Source: Desulfobaccales bacterium (GTDB lineage Bacteria > Desulfobacterota > Desulfobaccia > Desulfobaccales > 0-14-0-80-60-11). Taken from it: DNA of 64,000 nucleotides. Shown here one piece after another: positions 6,501 through 57,091 of the stretch. A program made the position numbers and the translations under genes. The notes below the pieces were generated by a model. It searched no databases and was not told the origin of the DNA. It saw only the letters and a list, made by a program, of their open reading frames with translations. The DNA is taken from the NCBI GenBank assembly GCA_052139855.1, contig JBKQVS010000155.1:2183-66182 (forward strand), in the 5' to 3' direction. Every line of letters begins with the position of its first letter. Position 1 is the stretch's first letter.

Positions 6501-8746
6501 CCCCCACTTTGGAAAACCTCACCAAGTTTGACCGTCCCCTGGAGGTCTTCACCGGGGAACTCCGTTCGTTACTGGTCCACCAGACGCCCTTCTATCTCTC
6601 CAAAAACGAGCCCTTGACCGGCGGCGGCGGTATGAGCGAAGAAGTCATGTCCAAGCTCAGGCGCCGCTTCGAAGCGGTGGCCTATTTCAATGCCCGGGTG
6701 CGCACCGACGCCCAGGGACGCGCCCAGGTGGCCTTTACCCTGCCAGACAATATGACCACCTACCGGGTTTACGCCGTGGTCTTGGACCGGGGCAGCCGCT
6801 TTGCCAGCGTCCAGCGCCCCCTCCTGGCCACCAAGGACTTTTATCTGGAGCCCGGTCTGCCCGGGTTCTTCACCAAGGGGGACCAATTTAAGTTCCGGGT
6901 GGCCGCCTTCAACGCCAGCGGCGAGAAGGGGCCGGTGCAATTCAGCGCCGTGGGCGATGGCGGGCTCTTTCTCACCGCCGTGGCACCCAAGGAGCAGCTC
7001 AATCCCAAAGACAGCTTAAAGCTCGAAGTCACCGGCCAGGCCGCCGCCAGCGGGCCGGCCGGCGCCCGTTTTGCCGGCAAATTCCAGGGGCGCACCGACG
7101 CGGTGGAACTCAAGCTGCCAATCAACTCCGGCCACGTCCGGGACACCCAGGTGTGGTTCGGTTCCCTGGCCGGGACCTCCGAGATCAAGGTCCCGCTCCC
7201 CGCCTACCTGACCGGCAAAGCCGCCGGGCAGATTAACCCCGAAGAGGTCAAGGCCGTCCTCACCGTGGCCGGGTCGCCTTTTTTGCGGATGACCGAGGCG
7301 ATTAACTATCTCCTCACTTACCCGTACGGTTGCGTCGAACAAACCAGTTCCGGGGTCCTGGCCCTGGCGGCCCTCCGCGGCGCCGTTCAGAAAGGCCTCG
7401 TGTTCGGGGTGACTCTGCCTGAAACCGACAAATATCTGAACCGCGGGGTGCAGCGTATCCTGGGCCTCCAGACCGACACCGGCGGCTTTGCCTACTGGCC
7501 GGGGCAGCGGCAACCCCACCTCTGGGGCTCGATTTACGCCGTCGCGGCCTTGAGCCAGGCCCGCGCCAACGGGGTCGCGGTGCCGGAAGATGCCTTGAGC
7601 CAGGCTTCTGCGTACTTGAAAACTCAAATGCAGGAGGAGAAACGCTCCCCCGCCTTCAAGGCCTTCGCCGCCTACGTCCTGGCCCTCAACCAGGCCCTGG
7701 ACCGCGACACCTTCAATACCGTGAACGCTCAGTTCGTGCGGATGTACCGGGAGAGCAAAATTCTGCTGCTGTTGGCGGCCAGGCAAGCCAACCTGCGCCC
7801 CCTGGACGAACTCCAGGCCGATCTGAAACCCCTGTTGGGCGGCAAGGCCGAGGCGGCTGAAGACGATCCCGAGGATTTCTCCAGCCGGTTCCGCAGCCCG
7901 GCCCTGGCCCTCCTGGCGGCCCAGGCCATCCTGCCCAAAGACCCCCTCACCCGGGAAGAGGCGCTCCTCCTCCTGGGGGGCCTGGACAGCCAGGGCATCT
8001 GGACCTCCACCAGCGATACCGGCTGGGCCTTGCTGGCCCTGGGCAGTTACTTCAAGGATGCGGCCTTTGGGTCCGCGCCGGTGGAGATCGCCATCAGCCA
8101 GCCCGGCGTTCCCGGCCCCCAGCGCCTCAAACTGGACCCGAACGGCTTCCGCACCGTGGGGCTTAACCCCGGGGCCCTGCTCAAGAACCCGGTAGTCAAG
8201 GTTGAGGGCCAGGCCGGCAAAACCTGGCTCTACAAGCTGGAGTTGACCGCCCCGCGGCTCGATATCGCCGCCGCCGGGGCCGCCAACGGCTTCAAGGTCC
8301 GCCGCGTCATCAAAAATACTGATGGCTCAGACGTTGTCACGGTGGGTGACCTGGTGAAAGTCACGATCTTTATCGAAGTCGCCGGCCGCGGGCAGCGCTA
8401 CGTAGTGCTGGATGACCCCCTGCCCGCCGGCCTGATGGCCCTCAACACCGCCTTCAAGACCGAGGAACCGATCTCCGAAGGCGACGAGTCCGAGCGCTAC
8501 GACGATTTCGATTATGTCACTTCGGATGGCACCATCCGGTTCCGTCCCAATTATTTCGAGATCAGGACCGACCGGGTCTTGGCCTTCCGGGACCAGGTTT
8601 ACTCCGGCTCCCAGCGGTTCGAGTATTACTGCCGGGCCGTGTGCGAGGGCAAGTTTATGGTCCCCGCCACCCGGGTGGCGGCCATGTACTCGCCGGGAGT
8701 TAACGGCTACTCCCCCCAGGGAGAACTTACCGTCAAGGGACGCTGA
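3581..8746 (+). CDS. yfhM: Bacterial alpha-2-macroglobulin family protein (thioester-containing, YfhM/ECAM type)
   Basis: 1721 aa with an N-terminal signal peptide. Thioester motif GCVEQ lies in YPYGCVEQTSSG. The large multi-domain size fits, and the stop overlaps the start of a pbpC-like gene by 1 nt, which is the classic yfhM-pbpC pairing. Confidence 0.9.
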   Translation: MGLSSKMFPHSSRGAGACARQLASLLILALALVWWMAPNLAAAQETPKSAAGFDSKKHVTIVKIEPDPGAEEVRIFFSQPFLLESLQGNLRLLPRIKIDWNRTTIDPKGVLTLRGAFRYGTGYLINLPETLRLGKKTYFKTVNSFFMGDRPPKVDFVGPQSVIERDSRQLLHVRAQNVNNLKFEGIRVPPLLLPLALAVEKSPADWDRVLEELNTASAGLKPLVASHKDLADFVTPSLSEKQLFPAAGEKNKPWAVTLPLSFRQGKEAGALELIRVQNNEAGSSAATPPRVFEITNLGLTYKRSPQNLLLWVTSLKAGTPMAGARVIGFTRDMEVFPLGQTNADGVLLYTSHELAGLSLKNPKNLQPVKRLVNQDDLVLLVAGTSDDVAFIQVTPQGNLKPQGIWQITSGAKIRNLRGNVFTERGVYRPGEKVFFKGAVREYSQGRIFPFKDEVCFFELISPKGEQVFTSEDRTSDFGTAAGEMVTQSYWPLGTYTLNMTYGPETPAEAASGKGRRGRREGEPSAEEAGPKNQVSVTFQIQEFKPPRHFVSIDFKQIVKPLQGYVNRGEQQSPFVKIMLTGSYYAGGQVKHGQVRWKIFQAKTSYQVPGYDNFTFGYGSEDQGSLIESGQAILDEKGRAELEFPLDRQIMSGEHGLSVVATVVDFDGRAASETKAFQVTPEVLVGISGHPDEIRSDEEQVLTVMVAKPDGKRIHRGALQAEILQKSWAYVAKRNEQGDLYWDEQEIWRKTVTSDLTLAKGTASFRFGFAWGGRYLLAFTYKDDAGHSFTSATPFEVTGESYAYENRDLPYLPLALSADQPAYKPGETARLTARPRSPVSRYLVTLEQEGVLKYQVITPKSEADSLPIPIQAEYAPNVYVSVLGLTPRGEFPVYAGHYDSQAPGFYWATLNLPVRHEIEALQVKISPAVKDLRAEPGDKITLDFTVQGPKGAPVEAEMAVAVVDEAVLALTGFKTPTLENLTKFDRPLEVFTGELRSLLVHQTPFYLSKNEPLTGGGGMSEEVMSKLRRRFEAVAYFNARVRTDAQGRAQVAFTLPDNMTTYRVYAVVLDRGSRFASVQRPLLATKDFYLEPGLPGFFTKGDQFKFRVAAFNASGEKGPVQFSAVGDGGLFLTAVAPKEQLNPKDSLKLEVTGQAAASGPAGARFAGKFQGRTDAVELKLPINSGHVRDTQVWFGSLAGTSEIKVPLPAYLTGKAAGQINPEEVKAVLTVAGSPFLRMTEAINYLLTYPYGCVEQTSSGVLALAALRGAVQKGLVFGVTLPETDKYLNRGVQRILGLQTDTGGFAYWPGQRQPHLWGSIYAVAALSQARANGVAVPEDALSQASAYLKTQMQEEKRSPAFKAFAAYVLALNQALDRDTFNTVNAQFVRMYRESKILLLLAARQANLRPLDELQADLKPLLGGKAEAAEDDPEDFSSRFRSPALALLAAQAILPKDPLTREEALLLLGGLDSQGIWTSTSDTGWALLALGSYFKDAAFGSAPVEIAISQPGVPGPQRLKLDPNGFRTVGLNPGALLKNPVVKVEGQAGKTWLYKLELTAPRLDIAAAGAANGFKVRRVIKNTDGSDVVTVGDLVKVTIFIEVAGRGQRYVVLDDPLPAGLMALNTAFKTEEPISEGDESERYDDFDYVTSDGTIRFRPNYFEIRTDRVLAFRDQVYSGSQRFEYYCRAVCEGKFMVPATRVAAMYSPGVNGYSPQGELTVKGR
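7331..7342 (+). other. CVEQ thioester-forming site of the alpha-2-macroglobulin
   Basis: In-frame codons TGC GTC GAA CAA (CxEQ). Confidence 0.85.
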
Positions 8747-33065: not shown

Positions 33066-36356
<3,291 letters not shown>

Positions 36357-36491
36357 ACCAGGTCAACCATGTATCCGCAGGCTTTAGCCGGCGTCCAAGA
36401 ACTGGTAGAATAGGCGTCACACCTGTGTTTCGAAGAAGATATTTTTGATAGCTATCATAAATATACATTTAAACACAAGGGGAGAAAATCT

Positions 36492-38081
36492 ATGACAACT
36501 GGAGATATTGCTCCTTCATCTTTAAAAATTGATAAATTAATGCGGAGAATTGAAGATGGAGATATTAAAATCCCTGCCTTCCAAAGAGGTTATGTCTGGA
36601 ACCAACAACAGGTAATAGATATTTTAGATAGTATCTATAATGATTATCCTATTGGGAGCATACTACTGTGGAATTAAAACGAAAGGCTAAAATCTACTAG
36701 AAATATTGGGGGCTTTTTAATACCTGAAAAAGAGCCGGAATATCCAGTAAGTTATGTTCTTGATGGACAGCAGAGGTTATCATCAATTTATGCTGTTTTT
36801 TGCCAAAACAGGGAGCAAGCTCCTGATAATCAAAAATATAATTTAGATATTAATATATTTGATATTTATTTTGATTTCGACGATGAAAAGTTCATCTCAA
36901 AAGATGATATAATTGAAGATCATATATGCTTTAATATAGATTCTCTATTGTTTACCGATAAATTTATTAAGGAATATAATAAATTACCTGAAAAATATCG
37001 CAAAGAGGCTGAAAACCTTAATTCAAAATTCATCAATTATGAAATTCCAATCGTAACTATTTCAAAAAAAAGTAAAAATGATGTGGGTGTTATTTTTGAA
37101 AGAATAAACAACACCGGTACTAAACTTACTCCATTAGACTTATTGGTTGCTTGGACCTGGAGCGATGATTTTCATTTAAGAGAAAAGATTGACGAGATAT
37201 TACAAATACTTGAATTAAAAAGTTTTGGGGACACCCCTGATAAAATTGTTTTGCAATGCTTAGGAGCTATAATCAAAAAGACAACGACCACGAAGGTTAT
37301 CCTTAGCCTAGCCCCGGAAGCAGTTAAGGAAAGGATCGATCAATTAAAATCAAGCTTAGAGAAAACAATTGACTATTTATCCACAGAATTAAAAGTAAAA
37401 TCTAGAGACTTTCTGCCCCACTCTCACCAGATGGTCCCTTTGGCCTATTTTTTCTCAAAAATAAATCATCCTAGTAACGAACAAAGCGCTATTTTAAAGC
37501 AATGGTTCTGGAAAACATCATTTTCTAAGAGGTATGCTGGATCAACTGATAAAAAGATGAATGATGACATTATGTTTATTGATAATATCATATCAGGAGA
37601 TTATTCTGATATAGTCAAATACTCACATTCTATAAATAAAGAAATTTTGATTAATCAGCAGTTCAGCAAAAGTAGCCCTTATACCCGTGCATTCTTATTA
37701 TTACTAGCACAAAAAAAACCCCTAAATATTGCTAATGGAAATAAAATAGATTTAGGTAAAGCATTATCTAAATATAATTTAAAAGAATATCATCATATAT
37801 TCCCAAAATCATTTTTAAGAGATAATAAATATGGAACTGATATGATAAACTCATTGTGTAATTTTACATTTCTACCTTCTTCTTCTAATAAATTTATATC
37901 AAATAAGGCACCATCAGAATATATATTAGAAATTACTCCTAAAGATAAATTAGATATAATTCTTAATTCTAATTTGATGCCGCCAGATAACGACATTTAT
38001 GAGAAGAATTCGTACAAAGATTTCTTGGAAAATCGTGCAGAATTAATAATACAATACATAGAGACTATATCTAACCAATGA
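36492..38081 (+). pseudogene. DUF262 (ParB-like NTPase) + DUF1524 (His-Me/HNH nuclease) protein, GmrSD-like type IV restriction family, interrupted by one in-frame TAA (36675-36677)
   Basis: ORFs 36492..36677 and 36948..38081 are in the same frame, and no other stop lies between them. The N-terminal part has IPAFQRGYVW...YPIGSILLWN-stop-NERL...YVLDGQQRLSSIY (DGQQR motif). The C-terminal part has YHHIFPKSFL...NFTFLPSSSNKFISNK. The region is strongly AT-rich. Confidence 0.75.
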
Positions 38082-38419
38082 GACATATAGGGTGCACACT
38101 TACCGCCATCAAAACGCGGTGCTACAGGTTTGCTCTCTCTATACTGGAACTATCCATTTACGGAAAAACCTGCTATCCTTAAGTTAGGCATAACCTTGTT
38201 AAGTCAATGTAGGGTGCGCCCTGCATACCATTAATGGCGGGCCGTCCCCGCCCCACCGTGAATGATTTCTCTAGGGTGGCCCCGGCCCACCACCCACCGC
38301 CCCGAGGCCGATACCGCGTTTTTCTTGTCAGGTTATATTAGACTTCTGAGCCAAAATAGCTTACTCTAGAAAATATCACGACCAGAGAAAGCCACTGCAT
38401 TGACTGACCCGATTGACCT

Positions 38420-39955
38420 ATGAAGAACACCCAAAACCCGGAGCCCAAAACCGAAAACCCGCCCATCATCCTCCCGGATGATCGGCCCAGAGAACACTGC
38501 GGCGTCTTCGGCATCTACGGCCACCCCGACGCGGCCCGCATCACCTACTTCGGCCTCTACGCCCTCCAGCACCGCGGCCAGGAGTCCTGCGGCATCGTCG
38601 CCGGCGACGGCAAGCGGGTCACCATGCACCGGGGCCTGGGGCTGGTACCCGAGGTCTTCAACCCGGAACTCCTGGATCAGCTTCCGGGCCATCTGGCCAT
38701 CGGCCACGTGCGCTATTCCACTACCGGCTCCACCATGCTCATCAACGCCCAGCCCTTCGTGGTGCAGCACGGCGGCCAGATGATCGCCATCGGCCACAAC
38801 GGCACCCTCACCAATGCCCGGGAAATCCGCTGCCGCCTCGAGGCCGCCGGCTCCATCTTCCAATCCACCATGGACACCGAAATCATCGTTCACCTCATGG
38901 CCCGGCACCCCGGCGCCGACCTGAAGGAGTCCCTGGTAAATGCTCTGGAGCACGTCAAAGGCTCCTATTCCCTGGTGATCTCCACCGCCGATCAGGTCAT
39001 CGCCGCCCGGGACCCTTACGGCTTCCGGCCCCTCTGCCTGGGCCAGTTGAACGGCTCCTGGGTGGTGGCCTCCGAGACCTGCGCCCTGGACCTGATCCAG
39101 GCCGATTACTGGCGTGACGTGGAGCCCGGCGAAATCGTGGTCATGGACAAAAACGGCCTGCATTCCCAAAAGCCTTTTGCGCCGGCGCCGCGCCGTTTCT
39201 GCATCTTCGAATACGTCTATTTCGCCCGGCCCGACAGCCTGGTCTATGGCCAGAGCGTCTATCTGGTGCGCAAGCGCCTGGGCGCCGCCCTGGCCCTGGA
39301 ACACCCCCTCACCGCCGACCTGGTCATGCCCTTCCCCGACTCCGGCACTTACGCCGCCCTGGGCTACGCCGCGGCCACCGGCTTCCCCTTCGAAATGGGG
39401 GTGATCCGCAATCACTACGTTGGCCGCACCTTTATCCAGCCTTCCCAGAGCATGCGGGACTTCTCCGTCCGCATCAAACTCAACCCGGTCCGGGACATTC
39501 TCAAAGGCCAACGCGTGGTGGTCATCGAAGACTCCATCATCCGGGGCACCACTACCCGCTCCCGGGTCAAGTCCCTGCGGGAAGCCGGCGCCAAGGAAGT
39601 GAGCATGCTGGTAAGCTGCCCGCCCCACCGCTTCCCATGCTACTACGGCATCGATTTTTCCAGCAAAGGCGAACTCATCGCCTCCCAGCAGGAAATCGGC
39701 CAGATCCGCGACTTCCTGGGCCTGGATTACCTGGGCTACCTGAGCCTCGAGGGCCTGGTGGAGGCCACCCAGTTAAACCATAGCGACTTCTGCCTCTCCT
39801 GCTTTTCCGGCGACTACCCCGTCCCCCTGGAGTCCGACTTCTCCAAGACCTGCTTCGAAGACGAGGTCTGCTCCCCCTCCCACGGCGAGTCCCTCCTGCC
39901 CCCGGTCTGCGGCATCGGGGGAAAAGCCAAAGCGGCGAAACGGCGAAAAGGGTAA
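38420..39955 (+). CDS. purF: Amidophosphoribosyltransferase (glutamine PRPP amidotransferase), [4Fe-4S] type with N-terminal propeptide
   Basis: 511 aa. The Ntn nucleophile is in REHCGVFGIYGH. The PRTase motif VVVIEDSIIRGTT and the cluster cysteines (CPPHRFPCYYGID; CLSCFSG) are present. The predicted propeptide is unusually long at 26 aa and contains a heptad-repeat translation. Confidence 0.9.
   Translation: MKNTQNPEPKTENPPIILPDDRPREHCGVFGIYGHPDAARITYFGLYALQHRGQESCGIVAGDGKRVTMHRGLGLVPEVFNPELLDQLPGHLAIGHVRYSTTGSTMLINAQPFVVQHGGQMIAIGHNGTLTNAREIRCRLEAAGSIFQSTMDTEIIVHLMARHPGADLKESLVNALEHVKGSYSLVISTADQVIAARDPYGFRPLCLGQLNGSWVVASETCALDLIQADYWRDVEPGEIVVMDKNGLHSQKPFAPAPRRFCIFEYVYFARPDSLVYGQSVYLVRKRLGAALALEHPLTADLVMPFPDSGTYAALGYAAATGFPFEMGVIRNHYVGRTFIQPSQSMRDFSVRIKLNPVRDILKGQRVVVIEDSIIRGTTTRSRVKSLREAGAKEVSMLVSCPPHRFPCYYGIDFSSKGELIASQQEIGQIRDFLGLDYLGYLSLEGLVEATQLNHSDFCLSCFSGDYPVPLESDFSKTCFEDEVCSPSHGESLLPPVCGIGGKAKAAKRRKG
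38427..38461 (+). repeat. Heptanucleotide tandem repeat (ACACCCA AAACCCG GAGCCCA AAACCGA AAACCCG)
   Basis: Five heptads starting 7 nt after the purF ATG, translated as TQNPEPKTENP. The 24-nt core ACCCAAAACCCGGARCCCAAAACC is shared with 15494-15517. Confidence 0.8.
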
Positions 39956-51623: not shown

Positions 51624-52577
51624 CTACTGCTGCTTTTTTTCTTCACCACCCGTAGTCTTTTCAGGTTTACGCACCCCAGGACCAGTGGCGGCAGGTTTCT
51701 GAACGGCCGGCCCTGTGGCTCCGGGTTTTTGAACGGCTGGGCCCGCGGCGCCAGGGGGAGGACCCCCAGGACCTGTGCCTCCCGGTTTATGAACCACCGG
51801 AGCGGTGGCGCCAGCCGGAGCACCGCCGGGACCCGCGGTTCCACGAGGACGCACGCCGGGAGCAGTTGCTCCAGGGGGAGGGCTGCCAGGAACTGTGCCG
51901 CCGGGTTTCTGAACAGCTGGACCAGTGGGACCAGCGGGATGAAACCCGGGACCTGTGCCTCCGGGGGTGTGGACGGCTGGACCGGTGCCGCTGGTGGGAG
52001 GACCACCGGGACCGGTGGCTCTGGGTTCACGAACGGCCGGACCAGGGCCTACAGGGCCACGGACGCCGGTGCCAGGAGTTCCAGGGCCGCGCACGCCGTG
52101 ACCAGGAGCCTCAGGCGGACGGACGCCATGGAATCCTTGCTGCCAACCTTCCCCCTGGCCGCGATGGTGCGTATTATAAAAATTCTGGTCATAGTGCTGG
52201 CCAACCCGATGTCCGCGCCAATAGGGATACTTTTGGGTAAAAGTCTGCCAGTAATGCGGATTGTGTTGATACCACACATTCCACCTCGGCTCATACCACG
52301 TAAAGGGCCTGACAATATAGACGGTCGGATAAGCGTAATACGGGGCCCAGCCATATTGATTGCCGAAAAAATATTGCAGTATGCCATTTAAAAACCAATC
52401 ACCCTGGTAAAAGGTCCAAGGCGTATTAGGCCCAACCCACGGGGTCGCGTAAATATTCTGGGGCGGGGGTGGATAGTTATAGCCATACATCTGAGCGCAA
52501 GAAGGTGCGGACATCGTCCCGATCGCGCCTACAGCCAGCAAAATTGCCAGTGCAAAAATAACACTCAGCCTTCTCAT
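51624..52577 (-). CDS. Secreted hypothetical protein: aromatic-rich N-terminal domain + degenerate Pro/Gly tandem-repeat C-terminus
   Basis: Start at MRRLSVIF (ATG 52577, GGAGG Shine-Dalgarno), with a signal peptide. A Trp/Tyr-rich ~130-aa region is followed by at least 8 degenerate repeats of the type PG(G/A)TGPG..PPPGA.GPAV(Q/H/R)K, and a Lys/Glu tail. Confidence 0.55.
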   Translation of the reverse strand: MRRLSVIFALAILLAVGAIGTMSAPSCAQMYGYNYPPPPQNIYATPWVGPNTPWTFYQGDWFLNGILQYFFGNQYGWAPYYAYPTVYIVRPFTWYEPRWNVWYQHNPHYWQTFTQKYPYWRGHRVGQHYDQNFYNTHHRGQGEGWQQGFHGVRPPEAPGHGVRGPGTPGTGVRGPVGPGPAVREPRATGPGGPPTSGTGPAVHTPGGTGPGFHPAGPTGPAVQKPGGTVPGSPPPGATAPGVRPRGTAGPGGAPAGATAPVVHKPGGTGPGGPPPGAAGPAVQKPGATGPAVQKPAATGPGVRKPEKTTGGEEKKQQ

Positions 52578-52908
52578 ACATTCCTCCGCGAGGTGTAGCA
52601 TTTTGCCAAAATGTCCGATCTGTTCATTTAGATCACCCTAATTCTGAAAAGTTAATAATTTGTAATTATGCGGCACATTTCTGTCTCTGTCAAAAATTGA
52701 TGCGTAAAACCTCTTGCCTCGACGTTGAACCCTTAAAACCAGGTTATCGGCGAACTATCCTGCCCGCTCTTCCATACCGTTAACCCCTCCAGATTGATTT
52801 TTGCTCCAAAGAATAGTTGACCCCGTCTCGACTTGGCCCCACAATAGGGGAAAATTGATCCTACGCCCGGTTACCGTCCCCGGCGCTCACGTTGACCAAG
52901 GGAGAGAC

Positions 52909-53502
52909 ATGGATTCTGCTTTCCTGAAAGCCCTGGCCCTGGCCCGGCCTGACCCCGGCGGCGGTGCCGCCGCGGCCCACAGCGCCGCCCTGGGCTTGGC
53001 CCTGATCGAGAAAGTGGTCCGGCTGGAGCACCATCGCCAGGGGCCTTCGAAAAATCCCGGCCTCCCCTGGGACGATCTTCTGGCCCGGGTAAGCGTTGTG
53101 TCCGCCGCGCTCCGGCGCCTGCAGGCCGAGGATGTCCAGGCCTATTTTTCTCTTGCCAAGGCCTTGGCCGCAGAGGACCCCGAAACCCTGGCCGCGGCCC
53201 TGGAGGAGGCGGTGGCCTGTCCGTTAAGGATCATGCAGCAGACCCAGGAGGGTCTGGCCTTGATTTGCCAGAGCGGCAGCGGCTGTAAACTTCACCTGTT
53301 GGCTGACCTGCTGGTGGCCTGCGAGTTGCTGGGCGCCGCCTTTCGAGGCGCGCACCACATTGCCCGGGCCAACCTGCCGCTCATGCAACAGAACTTCAAG
53401 CGAGCCGTCTGGGCCGAGGAACTTACCCTGACGGTGTCGGCCATTGAGGCTGAGTTGCTCCAGGTGCGGGCCGAGCTCCTCAGAAGGCTGGCATGCTCCT
53501 GA
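52909..53502 (+). CDS. Cyclodeaminase/cyclohydrolase family protein (FTCD C-terminal domain-like)
   Basis: Start at MDSAFL (ATG 52909). PGGGAAAAHSAALGLALIEKV is the hallmark N-terminal motif of the formiminotetrahydrofolate cyclodeaminase family. Confidence 0.7.
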   Translation: MDSAFLKALALARPDPGGGAAAAHSAALGLALIEKVVRLEHHRQGPSKNPGLPWDDLLARVSVVSAALRRLQAEDVQAYFSLAKALAAEDPETLAAALEEAVACPLRIMQQTQEGLALICQSGSGCKLHLLADLLVACELLGAAFRGAHHIARANLPLMQQNFKRAVWAEELTLTVSAIEAELLQVRAELLRRLACS

Positions 53503-54260
53503 TCGTTACCGCGGACAATCTCAACATCCTCAACCCCCCGGTGGCCCAGGCCCTTGACGCCCTCGACCCCCACCCCCTCCAGGAACTGGCCCGCCGCTGT
53601 GAGGAGGCCGGAGCTAACCTCATCGACATCAACCCCGGATTTCTGCCTCCCCGGCGCCACGACCGCATGGGCTTCATGGTGGAAGCGGTGCAGCAGGTCA
53701 CCGGCCTGCGCCTCATCCTGGACAGCCCTAGCGCCCCGGTCCTGGCCCGGGGCCTGGCGGTGGCGGACCAGCCCCCCATCCTCAACGCCTGCACCCTGGA
53801 GACGGAAAAACTCCGGGACATTCTGCCCCTGGCGGCAAGGCATCAGACCGACCTGGTTCTCCTCCTCCTTGACGCCCACTCCCGCCCTGGGGCCTCCCTG
53901 GAAGAAAAACTCACCCTGGCCCTGACGCTCCGGGAACACGCCCTGGCCGCCGGCCTCACGGACGAGCAGTTGATTTTCGACCCGGTCATCCCCAACCTCG
54001 CCTGGCCCGACGCCTGGGCCCAGGTGGGCGAAGTCGTCAAGACCGTGCGGCTGCTGCATGGCGGCGGCCTTTGGGGCGAGCCGGCCCGGACCATGGCCGG
54101 CCTCTCCAACCTCAGGAGCGGCCTCCGGCACACCTATCCCCTCCGCGTCGAGGAAGCCGCCCTGGCGCTCCTGGCCGGGGCCGGGCTCAGCCTCGCCCTG
54201 GTGGACGTCCTCCAGCCCGGCCTGATGGAAACCGTCCGGGTCATTAAGCAAGCGGTTTGA
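53493..54260 (+). CDS. Pterin-binding (DHPS-like TIM barrel) domain protein, methyltetrahydrofolate methyltransferase-like
   Basis: 255 aa. It overlaps the preceding folate-related gene by 10 nt. ADNLNILNPPVAQAL...ELARRCEEAGANLIDINPG resembles the N-terminal strand and helix of pterin-binding domains. This is a moderate, memory-based call. Confidence 0.5.
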   Translation: MLLIVTADNLNILNPPVAQALDALDPHPLQELARRCEEAGANLIDINPGFLPPRRHDRMGFMVEAVQQVTGLRLILDSPSAPVLARGLAVADQPPILNACTLETEKLRDILPLAARHQTDLVLLLLDAHSRPGASLEEKLTLALTLREHALAAGLTDEQLIFDPVIPNLAWPDAWAQVGEVVKTVRLLHGGGLWGEPARTMAGLSNLRSGLRHTYPLRVEEAALALLAGAGLSLALVDVLQPGLMETVRVIKQAV

Positions 54261-54324
54261 AATTCGTGAGTAGTTTCTATCTTTGAGTTTTGTATTTGCA
54301 CAAAAGACTTAGAATATTAATATC

Positions 54325-54353
54325 TTGAAATTTCAATAGACAATCATTATTAT
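54325..54353 (+). promoter_or_regulatory. Candidate sigma-70 promoter TTGAAA-17 nt-TATTAT inside the AT-rich islet
   Basis: Read directly. It lies about 60 nt upstream of ATG 54413, and a GGAG Shine-Dalgarno sits 7 nt before that ATG. Confidence 0.4.
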
Positions 54354-54412
54354 ACGTATAATCTAAATGTTTAGTTCCAAGCGTTGTTCATTGTTTTTCA
54401 TGGAGCTATGAT

Positions 54413-55282
54413 ATGGAGATAGGACCTGCTGGACTCACGAAATTGGCCGAGATGATATGCGGTGACGCACCGTTTACATATTTTCCTTATAGGAGTTCTT
54501 CTTATTTAACTCGCTTTTTTCAAGAGCTTGACCTTGACTATGCCCATGATGGCACAACCCGAAGGCACTGGGTTCGCTCAGTCTTGGATGGAATAAACAA
54601 ACTTTCACCGTCTGGACCGAATATGCCTTCGCGAGCAATGGTGAAAGTGATTGAATATTTGCTACATCCTAATCATTTTATGACCAATTTAGACACAGAC
54701 CATGAAAAAGCCGTTGCTACTGTAAACGACTCGTTGAAGTCTTATGGACTTATGATAAGGATAGATAATCGTACCAAGAATGTTAAACTGACGCCTACTT
54801 ACGGTGAGTTTGTCTCCACTGCAACAGAAGATCGTGTGCCGGAGAAAGTGATTACATTTTGTCCTGAGGTCTTTCGAGTTCCTGAAAAACAACCTCAGGA
54901 CAAATTGATTGCAGTAATGATGCCTTTTCAGGCTGAGTTTCGTCAAACATACGATGCAATAAAGAAGGCCTGCATAGCGGCAGGTTTATTTTGCTTTCGG
55001 GCAGATGATATATGGGAGAATACAACATTTATTCAGGATATTTTCGAGCTTATCTATTGCTCGCGAGTTGTAGTTGTCGATTTTTCTGGCAAAAATCCTA
55101 ATGTAATGTATGAGACTGGAGTAGCTCATACTCTTGGGAAGCATGTCATTCCTATTACCCAATCCATTGATGATGTTCCATCAGATCTACGCCACCATAG
55201 AGTTCTAAAATATCTGCCAAATAGAGAGGGTTATGATTCACTTCAGTCAAACTTGGAAACACGGTTGAGGCGCCTTACATGA
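54413..55282 (+). CDS. Orphan two-domain protein: unassigned N-terminal domain (~165 aa) + C-terminal nucleoside 2-deoxyribosyltransferase-like / TIR-like Rossmannoid module
   Basis: 289 aa in a sharply AT-rich islet. The C-terminal pattern is KLIAVMMPF-(helix FRQTYDAIKKACIAAG)-FCFRADDI-(helix IQDIFELIYCSR)-VVVVDFSGKNPNVMYETGVAHTLGKHVIPI. This matches the beta-alpha pattern and the NV.[FY]E.G.A..LGK.V signature of NDT/DrHyd-type domains. Confidence 0.6.
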   Translation: MEIGPAGLTKLAEMICGDAPFTYFPYRSSSYLTRFFQELDLDYAHDGTTRRHWVRSVLDGINKLSPSGPNMPSRAMVKVIEYLLHPNHFMTNLDTDHEKAVATVNDSLKSYGLMIRIDNRTKNVKLTPTYGEFVSTATEDRVPEKVITFCPEVFRVPEKQPQDKLIAVMMPFQAEFRQTYDAIKKACIAAGLFCFRADDIWENTTFIQDIFELIYCSRVVVVDFSGKNPNVMYETGVAHTLGKHVIPITQSIDDVPSDLRHHRVLKYLPNREGYDSLQSNLETRLRRLT

Positions 55283-55468
55283 ATAAATTATAATTAATTT
55301 AAACTAACAATGGTCAAAACTAATCTTACATCTAATTGTCATAAATTTAAGTAGGTTACTAAGTCTGTGATATAGAAATCCAAGCCTGACATAAAAAATA
55401 AGAGGTCTTCATCCATCCACCGTCCTTTAGGCAATCTCACCGGTTTAAAAACCCATCAAACCAGGGCC

Positions 55469-57091
55469 TTGGAGCGCCTCTATCGCCGCAAGGTGCCGCC
55501 GGCCCAGATGGTTACCCCGGAGTTGGCCCGGCAGCTGGCCGAGATTTCCGCCGAGGTCCGCCGGCAGATCGGCGTCTTGGTCGACCGCCAGGGCGCCGTG
55601 GCCTACGTCATCGTCGGCGACGCCAAGGGTCTCCTCATCCCCACCCTGCCCCGGGAGCGCGGCGTCAAAGGCCGCCTCAAAGGCCTCCGCCTAATCCACA
55701 CCCACCTGGACGCCGGCCCTTTGAACCATGAGGATCTCATGGACCTGGCCCTGCTGCGCCTGGATGCGGTGGCCGCCCTGGCCGTAACCGGCGGCCAGCC
55801 CGGCGCCATCGAGATCGCCCACCTCCTGCCCCAGCCGGTATATGGGCAGAATTGGGCCATCCTGCAGGCCCGGCAGGTGGGCGCCCTGCACCTCGATTTC
55901 GAGGCCCTGATGGCTTCCCTGGAAGCGGAATTCTCCCGCCTGGCCCCTGCCGGCCCGGGTAAAAATCGGGAACGCGCCATCCTTATCGGCGTCTCCGGGG
56001 CCAACCGCCCCGCGACCGAGGATTCCCTGGAAGAGCTCAAGGAACTGGCCCGCTCCGCCGGTCTTAACGTCTCGGCCACCATCCTGCAGCGCCGCCCCCG
56101 GTTCGACCCCCGTTTTCTCATGGGCAAGGGCAAGCTCTCGGAACTGGTCATCCAGGCCCTCCAGCAGGGGGTGGACATGCTGGTGTTCGACGCCGAGCTC
56201 AGCCCCTCCCAGATGCGTTCCATCACCAACTTTTCCGAACTCAAGGTCATCGACCGCACCCAGCTCATCCTGGACCTGTTCGCCCAGCGGGCCCGCAGCC
56301 GGGAAGGCAAGCTCCAGGTCGAGATGGCCCAGGTGAAATATCTCCTGCCCCGGCTGGTGGGCAAAGGCGACGCCCTCTCCCGTCTCATGGGCGGCATCGG
56401 CGGCCGGGGCCCCGGGGAGTCCAAGCTGGAGATTGACCGCCGCCGCCTTAGGGAGCGCCTCCACCGGCTCCAACAAGACCTGTCCCGCATCAGGAATGAA
56501 CGCCGTGAGCGGCGTCAGCCCCGCCGCCGTCTGAACCTGCCCGTCCTCTCCATCATCGGCTACACCAACGCCGGCAAATCCACCCTGTTTAATGCCCTGA
56601 CCCACGCCGCGGTCCTGGCCGAAGACCGCCTCTTCGCCACCCTGGACCCCACCAGCCGCCGCCTTCGCTTCCCCAAAGAAAGGGAGGTGATCATCACCGA
56701 TACGGTGGGTTTCATCAAAAATCTGCCCAAGAATCTCCTGGAAGCCTTCAAAGCCACCCTGGAAGAACTGGAGGACGCCGACCTCCTGATCCACGTCATT
56801 GATCTCAGCAACCCGCGCTTCATGGAGCAAATGGCCGCGGTGGAGCACATCCTGACCTCCCTGGCCCTCCACGACAAACCGGTGCTCATGGTCTTCAACA
56901 AGCAAGACCTGGCGGACCCCAACCTGGCGGCCCCGCAATGCCGCATCCATCACGGGGTGGCCATCTCGGCCCTGGACGAAAACACTCTGCCGCCGCTCAT
57001 GGCCCGCCTGGAGTCCAAAGTGGAGGAAGTGCTGGCCCGCCGCGAGACTGCCCCTCCCAGGCGGAACCCGAGCTTCAAGACGCGGCCGTAG
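55469..57091 (+). CDS. hflX: GTPase HflX
   Basis: 540 aa from TTG 55469. The HflX N-terminal domain is followed by G1 (GYTNAGKST), G3 (DTVGF) and G4 (NKQD). HflX-like sequence (LGNLTGLKTHQTRA) continues in frame upstream of the first canonical start; see findings. Confidence 0.85.
   Translation: MERLYRRKVPPAQMVTPELARQLAEISAEVRRQIGVLVDRQGAVAYVIVGDAKGLLIPTLPRERGVKGRLKGLRLIHTHLDAGPLNHEDLMDLALLRLDAVAALAVTGGQPGAIEIAHLLPQPVYGQNWAILQARQVGALHLDFEALMASLEAEFSRLAPAGPGKNRERAILIGVSGANRPATEDSLEELKELARSAGLNVSATILQRRPRFDPRFLMGKGKLSELVIQALQQGVDMLVFDAELSPSQMRSITNFSELKVIDRTQLILDLFAQRARSREGKLQVEMAQVKYLLPRLVGKGDALSRLMGGIGGRGPGESKLEIDRRRLRERLHRLQQDLSRIRNERRERRQPRRRLNLPVLSIIGYTNAGKSTLFNALTHAAVLAEDRLFATLDPTSRRLRFPKEREVIITDTVGFIKNLPKNLLEAFKATLEELEDADLLIHVIDLSNPRFMEQMAAVEHILTSLALHDKPVLMVFNKQDLADPNLAAPQCRIHHGVAISALDENTLPPLMARLESKVEEVLARRETAPPRRNPSFKTRP

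Follow-up and report, generated by a model that had tools for sequence, protein, structure and literature searches.

A horizontally acquired, AT-rich islet in a Desulfobaccales genome carries one gene for a predicted sensor-effector protein, probably of bacterial immunity

Introduction

Why are two housekeeping genes of a GC-rich Desulfobaccales chromosome, encoding a pterin-binding protein and HflX, separated by more than a kilobase of AT-rich DNA that holds a single gene, and what might that gene do there? The locus lies in a 64,000-nucleotide stretch of DNA from a Desulfobaccales bacterium (contig JBKQVS010000155.1 of assembly GCA_052139855.1), the whole of which we call the window and whose numbering is used for all coordinates without a locus name. 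At positions 54261-55410 of the window, an islet stands in place of what in relatives is a short spacer, and its sole long open reading frame (ORF; 54413-55282, + strand) encodes a protein of 289 amino acids (aa). An initial annotation, made from the letters of the DNA, had read the islet as a horizontally acquired one-gene module, and its product as an orphan, undescribed defence or conflict protein with a C-terminal domain like those of nucleoside 2'-deoxyribosyltransferases (NDT) and TIR effectors. Our analysis shows the islet to be acquired, foreign DNA, and leads us to consider it probable that it is a stand-alone immune or conflict gene, with a sensor and a toxic effector in one protein. 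The family to which this protein belongs is neither an orphan nor undescribed.

Results

The islet is foreign DNA at a site that is empty in relatives

The 1150-bp islet has a GC content of 0.378. Fifty-three further windows of equal length, taken without overlap, average 0.60 (sd 0.057), which puts the islet at z = -3.9. Its borders are as sharp as had been claimed: in 300-bp windows, GC runs at 0.68-0.72 up to ~54200, at 0.34-0.43 inside 54200-55400 and then at 0.65-0.71. GC at third codon positions is 0.355 in the islet gene; its neighbours, the pterin-binding gene and hflX, stand at 0.863 and 0.854. The flanks are housekeeping genes, encoding an FTCD_C protein and then the Pterin_bind protein (53493-54260) on one side, and HflX (55469-57091) on the other.

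A scan of species-representative genomes for HflX returned 65 loci, mostly from Desulfobaccales/Thermodesulfobacteriota metagenome-assembled genomes (MAGs), with HflX identities of 71-90%, a result that assigns the window to this group. The gene for the 289-aa protein is missing from all 65 of these hflX loci. In at least eight of them (L013, L032, L040, L044, L045, L047, L064 and L068) the site is empty, with the pterin-binding gene separated from hflX by a gap of 214-254 bp (178 bp at L032, where the pterin gene is matched merely in part). Nucleotide homology between the window and its relatives breaks at 54250-54260 and restarts at 55409-55415. Where relatives carry the gene, its non-coding flanks do not accompany it, no similarity being seen between them. 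The AT-rich 3' tail of the islet (55283-55410, +) is not conserved at relatives' loci, and contains no recognisable intrinsic terminator. The empty site in relatives, which the initial annotation had proposed as a check, together with the foreign composition, shows that the islet was acquired horizontally.

Insertion at the site between the pterin-binding gene and hflX recurs among Desulfobaccales relatives and makes it a hotspot: others of them carry 1.1-2.7 kb of unrelated cargo there. This cargo includes an IS5-type transposase (L037), a secreted-looking PNP_UDP_1 phosphorylase (L022, L039 and L053), a YkuD protein (L018), a GDSL hydrolase (L012) and RAYT-like fragments (L016 and L020). At L065 (3704-5185) it is an AT-rich (GC 0.41) single gene, whose product resembles bSEFIR (PADLOC 5e-74; Pfam TIR_2 and SEFIR), a validated single-gene defence protein. 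At L016 (5231-5750) we also observed a small insert that lies between two copies of the final ~94 bp of the pterin-binding gene, and in which a REP-like inverted repeat accompanies the beginning of a RAYT/IS200-like ORF (MPQYIRPYAPGGTFFF). This duplication hints that the 3' end of the pterin-binding gene is used as an integration target.

No direct repeats flank the islet, and target-site duplications and terminal repeats are likewise absent. No integrase or partner gene adjoins it and no tRNA is near, the single tRNA of the window being 24 kb distant; on these absences the initial annotation was right. The islet was also searched for a non-coding RNA (ncRNA) partner of the kind of type III antitoxins or retron ncRNAs, and Rfam gave far-sub-threshold matches only. 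The Shine-Dalgarno that had been noted is found as a GGAG at 54402-54405 (+), 7 nt 5' of the ATG. The reported promoter-like element, TTGAAA-17-TATTAT, is present at 54325-54353 (+) and matches 10 of 12 positions of the sigma-70-like consensus, by which match alone it is a candidate. It is nevertheless weak evidence for a promoter, because such sites are fairly common in this AT-rich DNA: six were seen in the stretch against 2.9 +/- 1.9 expected from shuffled sequence, a mild enrichment of about twofold.

The gene is a member of a widespread, conserved family

The 289-aa protein, in which the NPNVMYETGVAHTLGKHVIPI motif is found, is 100% identical to MGO8763042.1, annotated as a hypothetical protein of a Desulfobaccales MAG. 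Contrary to the description of it as an orphan, a search of 5.8 billion clusters returned 2,131 homologues at E <= 1e-3 (counted as clusters at 90% identity), many of them full-length at ~60% identity across phyla. Among the named sources are Chlorobium, Pseudoalteromonas, Shewanella, Photobacterium, Neptuniibacter, Gallionella, Thiodiazotropha and Legionella pneumophila, the homologue of the last being known from 618 contigs. A 31-member alignment has a mean column identity of 72%, 73 invariant positions and a fixed two-domain architecture, and the 289-aa protein keeps all of the family-invariant residues. The gene is intact and, with a dN/dS of ~0.08 against an 82%-identical homologue, under purifying selection.

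Genes of the family have a GC content of 40-48% irrespective of that of the host locus (38% or 60%). This constant composition, the conservation across phyla and the patchy presence together point to frequent horizontal transfer. Three weak partial matches were all that phage genomes yielded, and we therefore discard the ideas that the gene came from phage or acts against defence. Whole-protein sequence searches of Pfam, NCBIfam and the PDB also produced matches to MipZ (E 0.096) and oligoribonuclease (E 1.4), which we treat as noise.

The C-terminal domain has an NDT/TIR-like predicted fold

AlphaFold models the full-length protein (mean pLDDT 83.9, pTM 0.49) as two well-predicted domains joined by a flexible, disordered linker (residues 132-151; 54806-54865, +; pLDDT <50). 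Given a full-length pTM of just 0.49, no fixed packing of the domains against each other is predicted. At the junction of linker and effector the coding sequence holds a 16-nt inverted repeat (54855-54907; 94% complementary, 21-nt loop; FCPEVFRVPEKQPQDK), also the source of a spurious sub-threshold Rfam match to 'mir-3167'. This repeat may be a hairpin with a regulatory role, a scar that recombination left where the domains join, or a product of chance.

The C-terminal module (residues 152-289; 54866-55279, +) consists of a 'PxVFxVP' lead-in and a Rossmannoid domain. The ordered parts of residues 160-289 have pLDDT values of mostly 82-97, with two 10-residue blocks at 71 and 74, and both the model and Foldseek assign them a three-layer alpha/beta Rossmannoid (flavodoxin-like) fold. 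The top Foldseek match in the PDB is a cyanobacterial nucleoside 2'-deoxyribosyltransferase (8qc0; E 2.7e-4, TMt 0.61), followed by human DNPH1 (8rpt; E 5e-4), with the TIR domains of MAL (1.2e-3) and SARM1 just behind the NDT in the range 1-2e-3; further matches are the TIR domain of SPARTA and the CMP N-glycosidase BcmB. The PF05014 (Nuc_deoxyrib_tr) profile gives no match to the query, weak matches to 18 of the 31 close homologues (best E 0.017) and a match at 4.7e-5 to two distant relatives. The Pfam profiles TIR, TIR_2, SEFIR and ThsB_TIR match neither the query nor any of the 31 homologues at E <= 1. The PADLOC 'Effector TIR' model PDLC00733 matches the query weakly (E 2.4e-5) and its relatives at 9.5e-11. 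A match of the family profile to V-ATPase subunit C in the PDB falls over the linker region and is spurious. In published work TIR, DrHyd (NDT/DNPH1/ARC) and SLOG domains form one Rossmannoid clade, and the DrHyd versions in conflict systems have been predicted to be NADases equivalent to TIR. By fold, then, the NDT/TIR-like label of the initial annotation is right, with NDT/DrHyd the better name.

When residues 219-246 (VVVVDFSGKNPNVMYETGVAHTLGKHVI) are aligned by BLASTP with rat Rcl/DNPH1 (VVVAEVTQPSLGVGYELGRAVALGKPIL), 11 of the 28 positions are identical (E 0.002, for a single comparison); the rat Rcl bait fragment was confirmed to be 100% identical to 2khz_A. In this alignment E234, the glutamate of YETG (codon at 55112-55114, +), which is invariant in the 31 close homologues, sits on the glutamate of Rcl 'GYELG'. 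Glu93 of rat DNPH1 binds ribose, and E104 of human DNPH1 is the covalent nucleophile that gives rise to a glycosyl-enzyme intermediate. The equivalent catalytic glutamate of LlNDT is E98. E234 is predicted to be the catalytic nucleophile. The motif that the protein has in common with DNPH1 reads VVVxDxxxxxxxVxYExGxAxxLGK, and the glycine-rich phosphate-binding loop of DNPH1 (Gly16-Gly20, after strand 1) is replaced by VMMPF. One divergent homologue, P0136 (alignment A4), has YQVG in place of YETG, with glutamine for the predicted catalytic glutamate, and differs elsewhere in the conserved core as well; this variant may be inactive by nature, or act as a sensor alone.

The two halves recur separately in other proteins

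Residues 1-135 (54413-54817, +), modelled alone, form five helices and a beta-hairpin with a pLDDT of 89.6 and a pTM of 0.84. No significant fold relatives were found, the best E values being 0.42 in the PDB and 0.33 among viral models (BFVD). A profile of this domain reaches 466 proteins of varied lengths at E <= 1e-3 (258 at <= 1e-10) among 1.84 billion representatives, and partner domains were read from 50 of the longer ones. An NDT-like C-terminus is present in 17 of these 50, and the other fusions are to TIR_2 (7), TIR (2), SEFIR (1), ThsB_TIR (1), SLT (1) and two HEPN domains, Abi_C (the AbiJ HEPN; 1, E 5.6e-22) and DUF4145 (1). HKD and Ymh fusions are absent from the 50. When these 50 proteins were searched with PADLOC, the models matched were spbK (8e-50), bSEFIR (6e-70), AbiJ (5e-16), those of the candidate families PDC-S66 and PDC-S32 and, weakly, Stk2. 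That SpbK or bSEFIR themselves have this sensor was considered and rejected, since the matches span only the effector halves of the sister proteins.

The domain also occurs in a large plasmid subgroup, represented by the 326-aa protein WP_089576189.1, in which an AbiJ-NTD1-like domain ('LYRSSSRITEFFQ...HDGSTR.AW') precedes a C-terminus with, by eye, a PD-(D/E)xK-like pattern. This protein, which has no Pfam and no PADLOC match, is found on 19 Escherichia and 8 Klebsiella plasmids. Its gene comes straight after vapBC on the conjugative plasmids at L087 (5001-5981; E. coli IncI/K pYZLc4-1_94k) and L088 (5001-5981; Klebsiella IncF), and on pYZLc4-1_94k genes for a DUF4238 protein and an S-4TM effector lie near it.

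Three observations bear on the name of the N-terminal domain. The Pfam models AbiJ_NTD3, 4 and 5 match neither the query nor the 31 homologues, which is consistent with NTD1 or NTD2. In UniRef, members from Chlorobium and Legionella bear the name 'AbiJ N-terminal domain-containing protein'. Proteins reached by the N-terminal profile at E <= 7e-16 have Abi_C, DUF4145, NDT, PADLOC AbiJ, weak Stk2 and restriction endonuclease (REase)-like C-termini. Judged by these partners, by its length and by the name that was assigned automatically, the domain is very probably AbiJ-NTD1-like.

The effector module, its 'PxVFxVP' lead-in included, is in turn found at 46-57% identity behind unrelated N-termini (hhalign probability 0.2%) on Serratia IncFII, Agrobacterium and Sphingorhabdus plasmids, the Sphingorhabdus copy lying directly after a dcm-vsr-REase operon (type II restriction-modification, R-M). 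As the sensor occurs with varied effectors and the effector with unrelated N-termini, both halves of the 289-aa protein are, on these comparisons, seen to be independently shuffled modules, a pattern typical of conflict-system proteins. The initial annotation had set the N-terminal part aside as a possible sensor; its recurrence before other effector domains agrees with a separate domain, plausibly a sensor.

Homologues lie in mobile or defence-rich neighbourhoods

We sampled 13 contexts of the full-length family in other genomes and, to judge by the genes around it, the neighbourhoods are usually mobile or defence-rich. The gene overlaps the hsdS stop of a type I R-M operon (hsdR-hsdM-hsdS) in Gallionella, within an island flanked by integrases/recombinases, and adjoins higBA in Photobacterium, with an Mrr endonuclease too in one strain. 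The Shewanella island encodes HEPN_RiboL-PSP, MauJ, a 1,237-aa SIR2_2 protein, PFIN, AbiH and umuDC, and contains an integrase fragment. AbiGi and DUF5677 are alongside the gene in one 82%-identical relative, while in another it adjoins an integrase and IS91; in Chlorobium and at one further locus it lies amid transposases, and in Pseudoalteromonas DUF6236 and FRG proteins are alongside. The settings of the 82%-identical relatives are unrelated, which also speaks for a foreign origin. A look for defence islands around homologues, suggested at the outset, thus found R-M, Mrr/HigB, SIR2/AbiH and AbiGi beside them.

No neighbour gene recurs in the 13 contexts, which marks the gene as a stand-alone one and upholds the description of a one-gene module. 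At L003, which is the locus of an 82%-identical homologue and resembles the window in being GC-rich, a 69-aa ORF (6528-6737) shares 4 nt with the start of the gene. It is probably no partner, as it has no equivalent in the window or in the other contexts.

Other features of the window

A second, still more AT-rich islet, at 36360-38400, reaches a minimum GC of 0.26 and is bordered by carB (33066-36356) and a purF-like gene (38420-39955). The gene inside it encodes a type IV restriction protein of the GmrSD/DUF262 type (GmrSD_N E 1.9e-6, below the gathering score; DGQQR and HHIFPKSF motifs), and an in-frame stop after '...LLWN' suggests that it is a pseudogene or contains a sequencing error. 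Counted with the islet at 54261-55410, it brings the AT-rich, one-gene inserts of defence type that part housekeeping genes in this genome to at least two. The N-terminus of a 325-aa ORF at 51624-52601 (-) resembles a signal peptide, its middle is rich in aromatic residues (YGYNYPPPP, W/Y-rich), and its long tail consists of Gly/Pro-rich repeats (PGGTGPG... and AVQKPG...). No Pfam model matches it, and GC over it ranges from 0.44 to 0.73.

Discussion

The architecture is on record

The initial annotation called the gene undescribed, and on this point it does not stand. Anantharaman et al. 2013 (PMC3710099) described five 'AbiJ-NTD' domains, proposing that they sense phage components and/or restrain the toxic C-terminal enzyme, and their Table 2 lists AbiJ-NTD1 with a nucleoside deoxyribosyltransferase. 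AbiJ-NTD1 is there ~140 aa and mostly helical, with AbiJ, DUF4145 and Ymh HEPN domains and REase, HKD, kinase and NDT as its partners. What we find is alike, both in a mostly helical N-terminal domain of ~135-140 aa before an NDT-fold domain and in the partners (AbiJ HEPN/Abi_C, DUF4145 HEPN, REase-like, weak kinase and NDT). It differs in the TIR, SEFIR and ThsB-TIR fusions, which are absent from the 2013 list. The literature we searched holds no mention of AbiJ-NTD1 beyond that paper. The gene adds a Desulfobaccales member to a widespread family whose prediction, by computation, dates from 2013, and is no categorically new system.

Several known systems resemble this protein in part. Lactococcal AbiJ, for which a mechanism is still lacking and escape mutations lie in phage single-strand annealing proteins, has a C-terminal Abi_C HEPN RNase. 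As the C-terminal domain here is NDT-like and not HEPN, the 289-aa protein is not AbiJ itself, and the two have a type of N-terminal module in common only. SpbK, of Bacillus subtilis ICEBs1, docks on the phage portal by its N-terminal domain and clusters its TIR NADase domains. It is likewise a single gene on mobile DNA, encoding a small helical N-terminal domain, a flexible linker and a Rossmannoid nucleotide-cleaving domain with a catalytic glutamate. However, its N-terminal domain is a 94-residue four-helix bundle, the PADLOC spbK model matches our relatives over the TIR half only, and its effector is a canonical TIR, whereas the 289-aa protein is NDT/DrHyd-like and without a Pfam TIR match.

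Retron Ec86 (Eco1), too, turns an NDT-like domain with a catalytic glutamate against phage as a toxic effector, for which depletion of NAD+ or of adenine derivatives has been reported. Control in Ec86 is in three parts, by way of a reverse transcriptase and multicopy single-stranded DNA, while the islet has neither reverse transcriptase nor ncRNA, and control would lie in the fused domain. Swarozyc (bioRxiv 2026, doi 10.64898/2026.05.01.722283), a DUF4062 TIR-like NADase that forms an assembly with the phage portal, is alike as a one-protein defence with an auxiliary domain and a TIR/NDT-like domain bearing a catalytic glutamate. Its auxiliary domain is a different one, DUF4062 giving no Pfam match in the query or the 31 family members. 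DNPH1/Rcl, MilB/BcmB and the classical NDTs have the same fold, with a beta-strand, a loop and a 'YExG' helix start that carries the nucleophilic glutamate. They are metabolic enzymes of ~150 aa that stand alone and have a phosphate-binding loop behind strand 1; the 289-aa protein has no such loop, has a sensor domain, and is mobile and defence-linked in its distribution.

How the protein may act, and what else it may be

Our preferred reading is that of an acquired stand-alone immune gene, for which the following mechanism would account. The AbiJ-NTD1-like domain would recognise a phage-derived protein or nucleic acid, and the flexible linker would tether it to a DrHyd/NDT-like N-glycosidase domain with E234 as its nucleophile. 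An infection cue would then turn the effector on, through relief of inhibition or because effector domains cluster and so form composite active sites. Such clustering, the mode of SpbK, Swarozyc and the retron Ec86 effector, is attractive, since NDT/DNPH1 active sites lie at dimer interfaces and TIR-type NADases need higher-order assembly, and a tethered sensor would fit the long disordered linker and the low inter-domain confidence of the model better than a tightly packed auto-inhibitor. The active effector would then cut the N-glycosidic bond of an essential nucleotide, the likeliest being NAD+, with (deoxy)nucleoside monophosphates ((d)NMP) or nucleoside triphosphates (NTP) as alternatives, and growth arrest or abortive infection would follow. 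NAD+ is favoured because its depletion is what the TIR-like relatives and retron Ec86, the only NDT-like defence effector to be characterised, bring about. The anti-phage role, the trigger, the mode of activation and the substrate are all inferred.

A number of results weigh against this reading. In whole-protein searches of Pfam and NCBIfam the query has no match that passes the threshold, and searches of profiles against PDB sequences reach no solved NDT or TIR structure. With sequence profiles failing, the enzymatic assignment rests on a modest fold match (~3e-4) and the 28-residue alignment. PADLOC v2, which had been suggested as a check, adds its weak match to a TIR effector model but names no system and has no dedicated model for the protein. 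Judged by sequence, no validated system has the sensor domain in common, and the literature searched contains no experimental study of the family or its architecture. Some contexts, namely L080 and the window itself, have no obvious defence link.

Among the alternatives, that in which the effector is a DNPH1/MilB-like (deoxy)nucleotide N-glycosidase, which hits a pool of dNMP, NTP or modified phage nucleotides (hm-dUMP or hm-dCMP) rather than NAD+, is a serious one, though it seems to us rather unlikely. The fold matches lean towards it, NDT and DNPH1 standing slightly above TIR and the CMP N-glycosidase BcmB being matched too, as do the long motif shared with DNPH1, family Pfam matches that are to Nuc_deoxyrib_tr and none to TIR, and the broad nucleotide range of DrHyd enzymes. 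Yet the phosphate-binding loop of DNPH1 is lost to VMMPF, the closest PADLOC model carries the label of a TIR effector, and the characterised defence effectors of the clade, the NDT-like Ec86 included, are reported NAD+ depleters. The gene might instead be a toxin or addiction module, or a weapon of competition between elements, that stabilises or protects its carriers, given that family members and domain relatives sit on conjugative plasmids beside vapBC, ccdAB and partition genes and other members amid transposases. We think this very unlikely, as the window gene is alone in the chromosome with no mobile element left to stabilise, an antitoxin partner is not conserved in the sampled contexts, and the R-M, SIR2, AbiH and AbiGi neighbours are typical of defence islands.

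That the protein is a ThsB-like signal producer, supplying a nucleotide second messenger to an effector whose gene lies elsewhere, would agree with the capacity of TIR/DrHyd enzymes for signals of the cyclic ADP-ribose (cADPR) type, SpbK yielding N1-cADPR besides ADP-ribose. It is highly improbable all the same, with a conserved partner effector in none of the 13 contexts and the same sensor fused, in sister proteins, to directly toxic HEPN RNases and REase-like nucleases. Most strongly disfavoured, and scarcely credible, is a housekeeping nucleoside/nucleotide salvage enzyme homologous to NDT/DNPH1, or a decaying, functionless remnant. The weak Pfam likeness to nucleoside 2-deoxyribosyltransferase is set against absence at all 65 related hflX loci, a patchy cross-phylum distribution at ~60% identity, foreign composition, a fused conflict-system sensor domain, and an ORF that is intact with a dN/dS of ~0.08.

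What the islet would mean

A bolder proposition, that the N-terminal domain is a new class of direct receptor for phage cues and the effector the first stand-alone immune (deoxy)nucleotide N-glycosidase and not an NADase, we regard as distinctly unlikely. If it were true, an effector attacking (deoxy)nucleotides, such as dNMPs modified by phage or precursors of dNTPs, would be a new nucleotide-depletion branch of immunity, spanning more than 2,100 clusters that include Legionella pneumophila and enterobacterial plasmids. Validation of the acquired immune gene as we prefer to read it would turn the comparative-genomics prediction of 2013 into a working single-gene defence system. Its sensor is reused before at least six types of effector (NDT-like, TIR, SEFIR, two HEPN families and nuclease-like), and through this reuse the trigger of one member would inform the whole set, lactococcal-type AbiJ included. 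The islet, if so validated, would also be a chromosomal example of how GC-rich Desulfobaccales gain AT-rich, one-gene immune cassettes at a hotspot between the pterin-binding gene and hflX.

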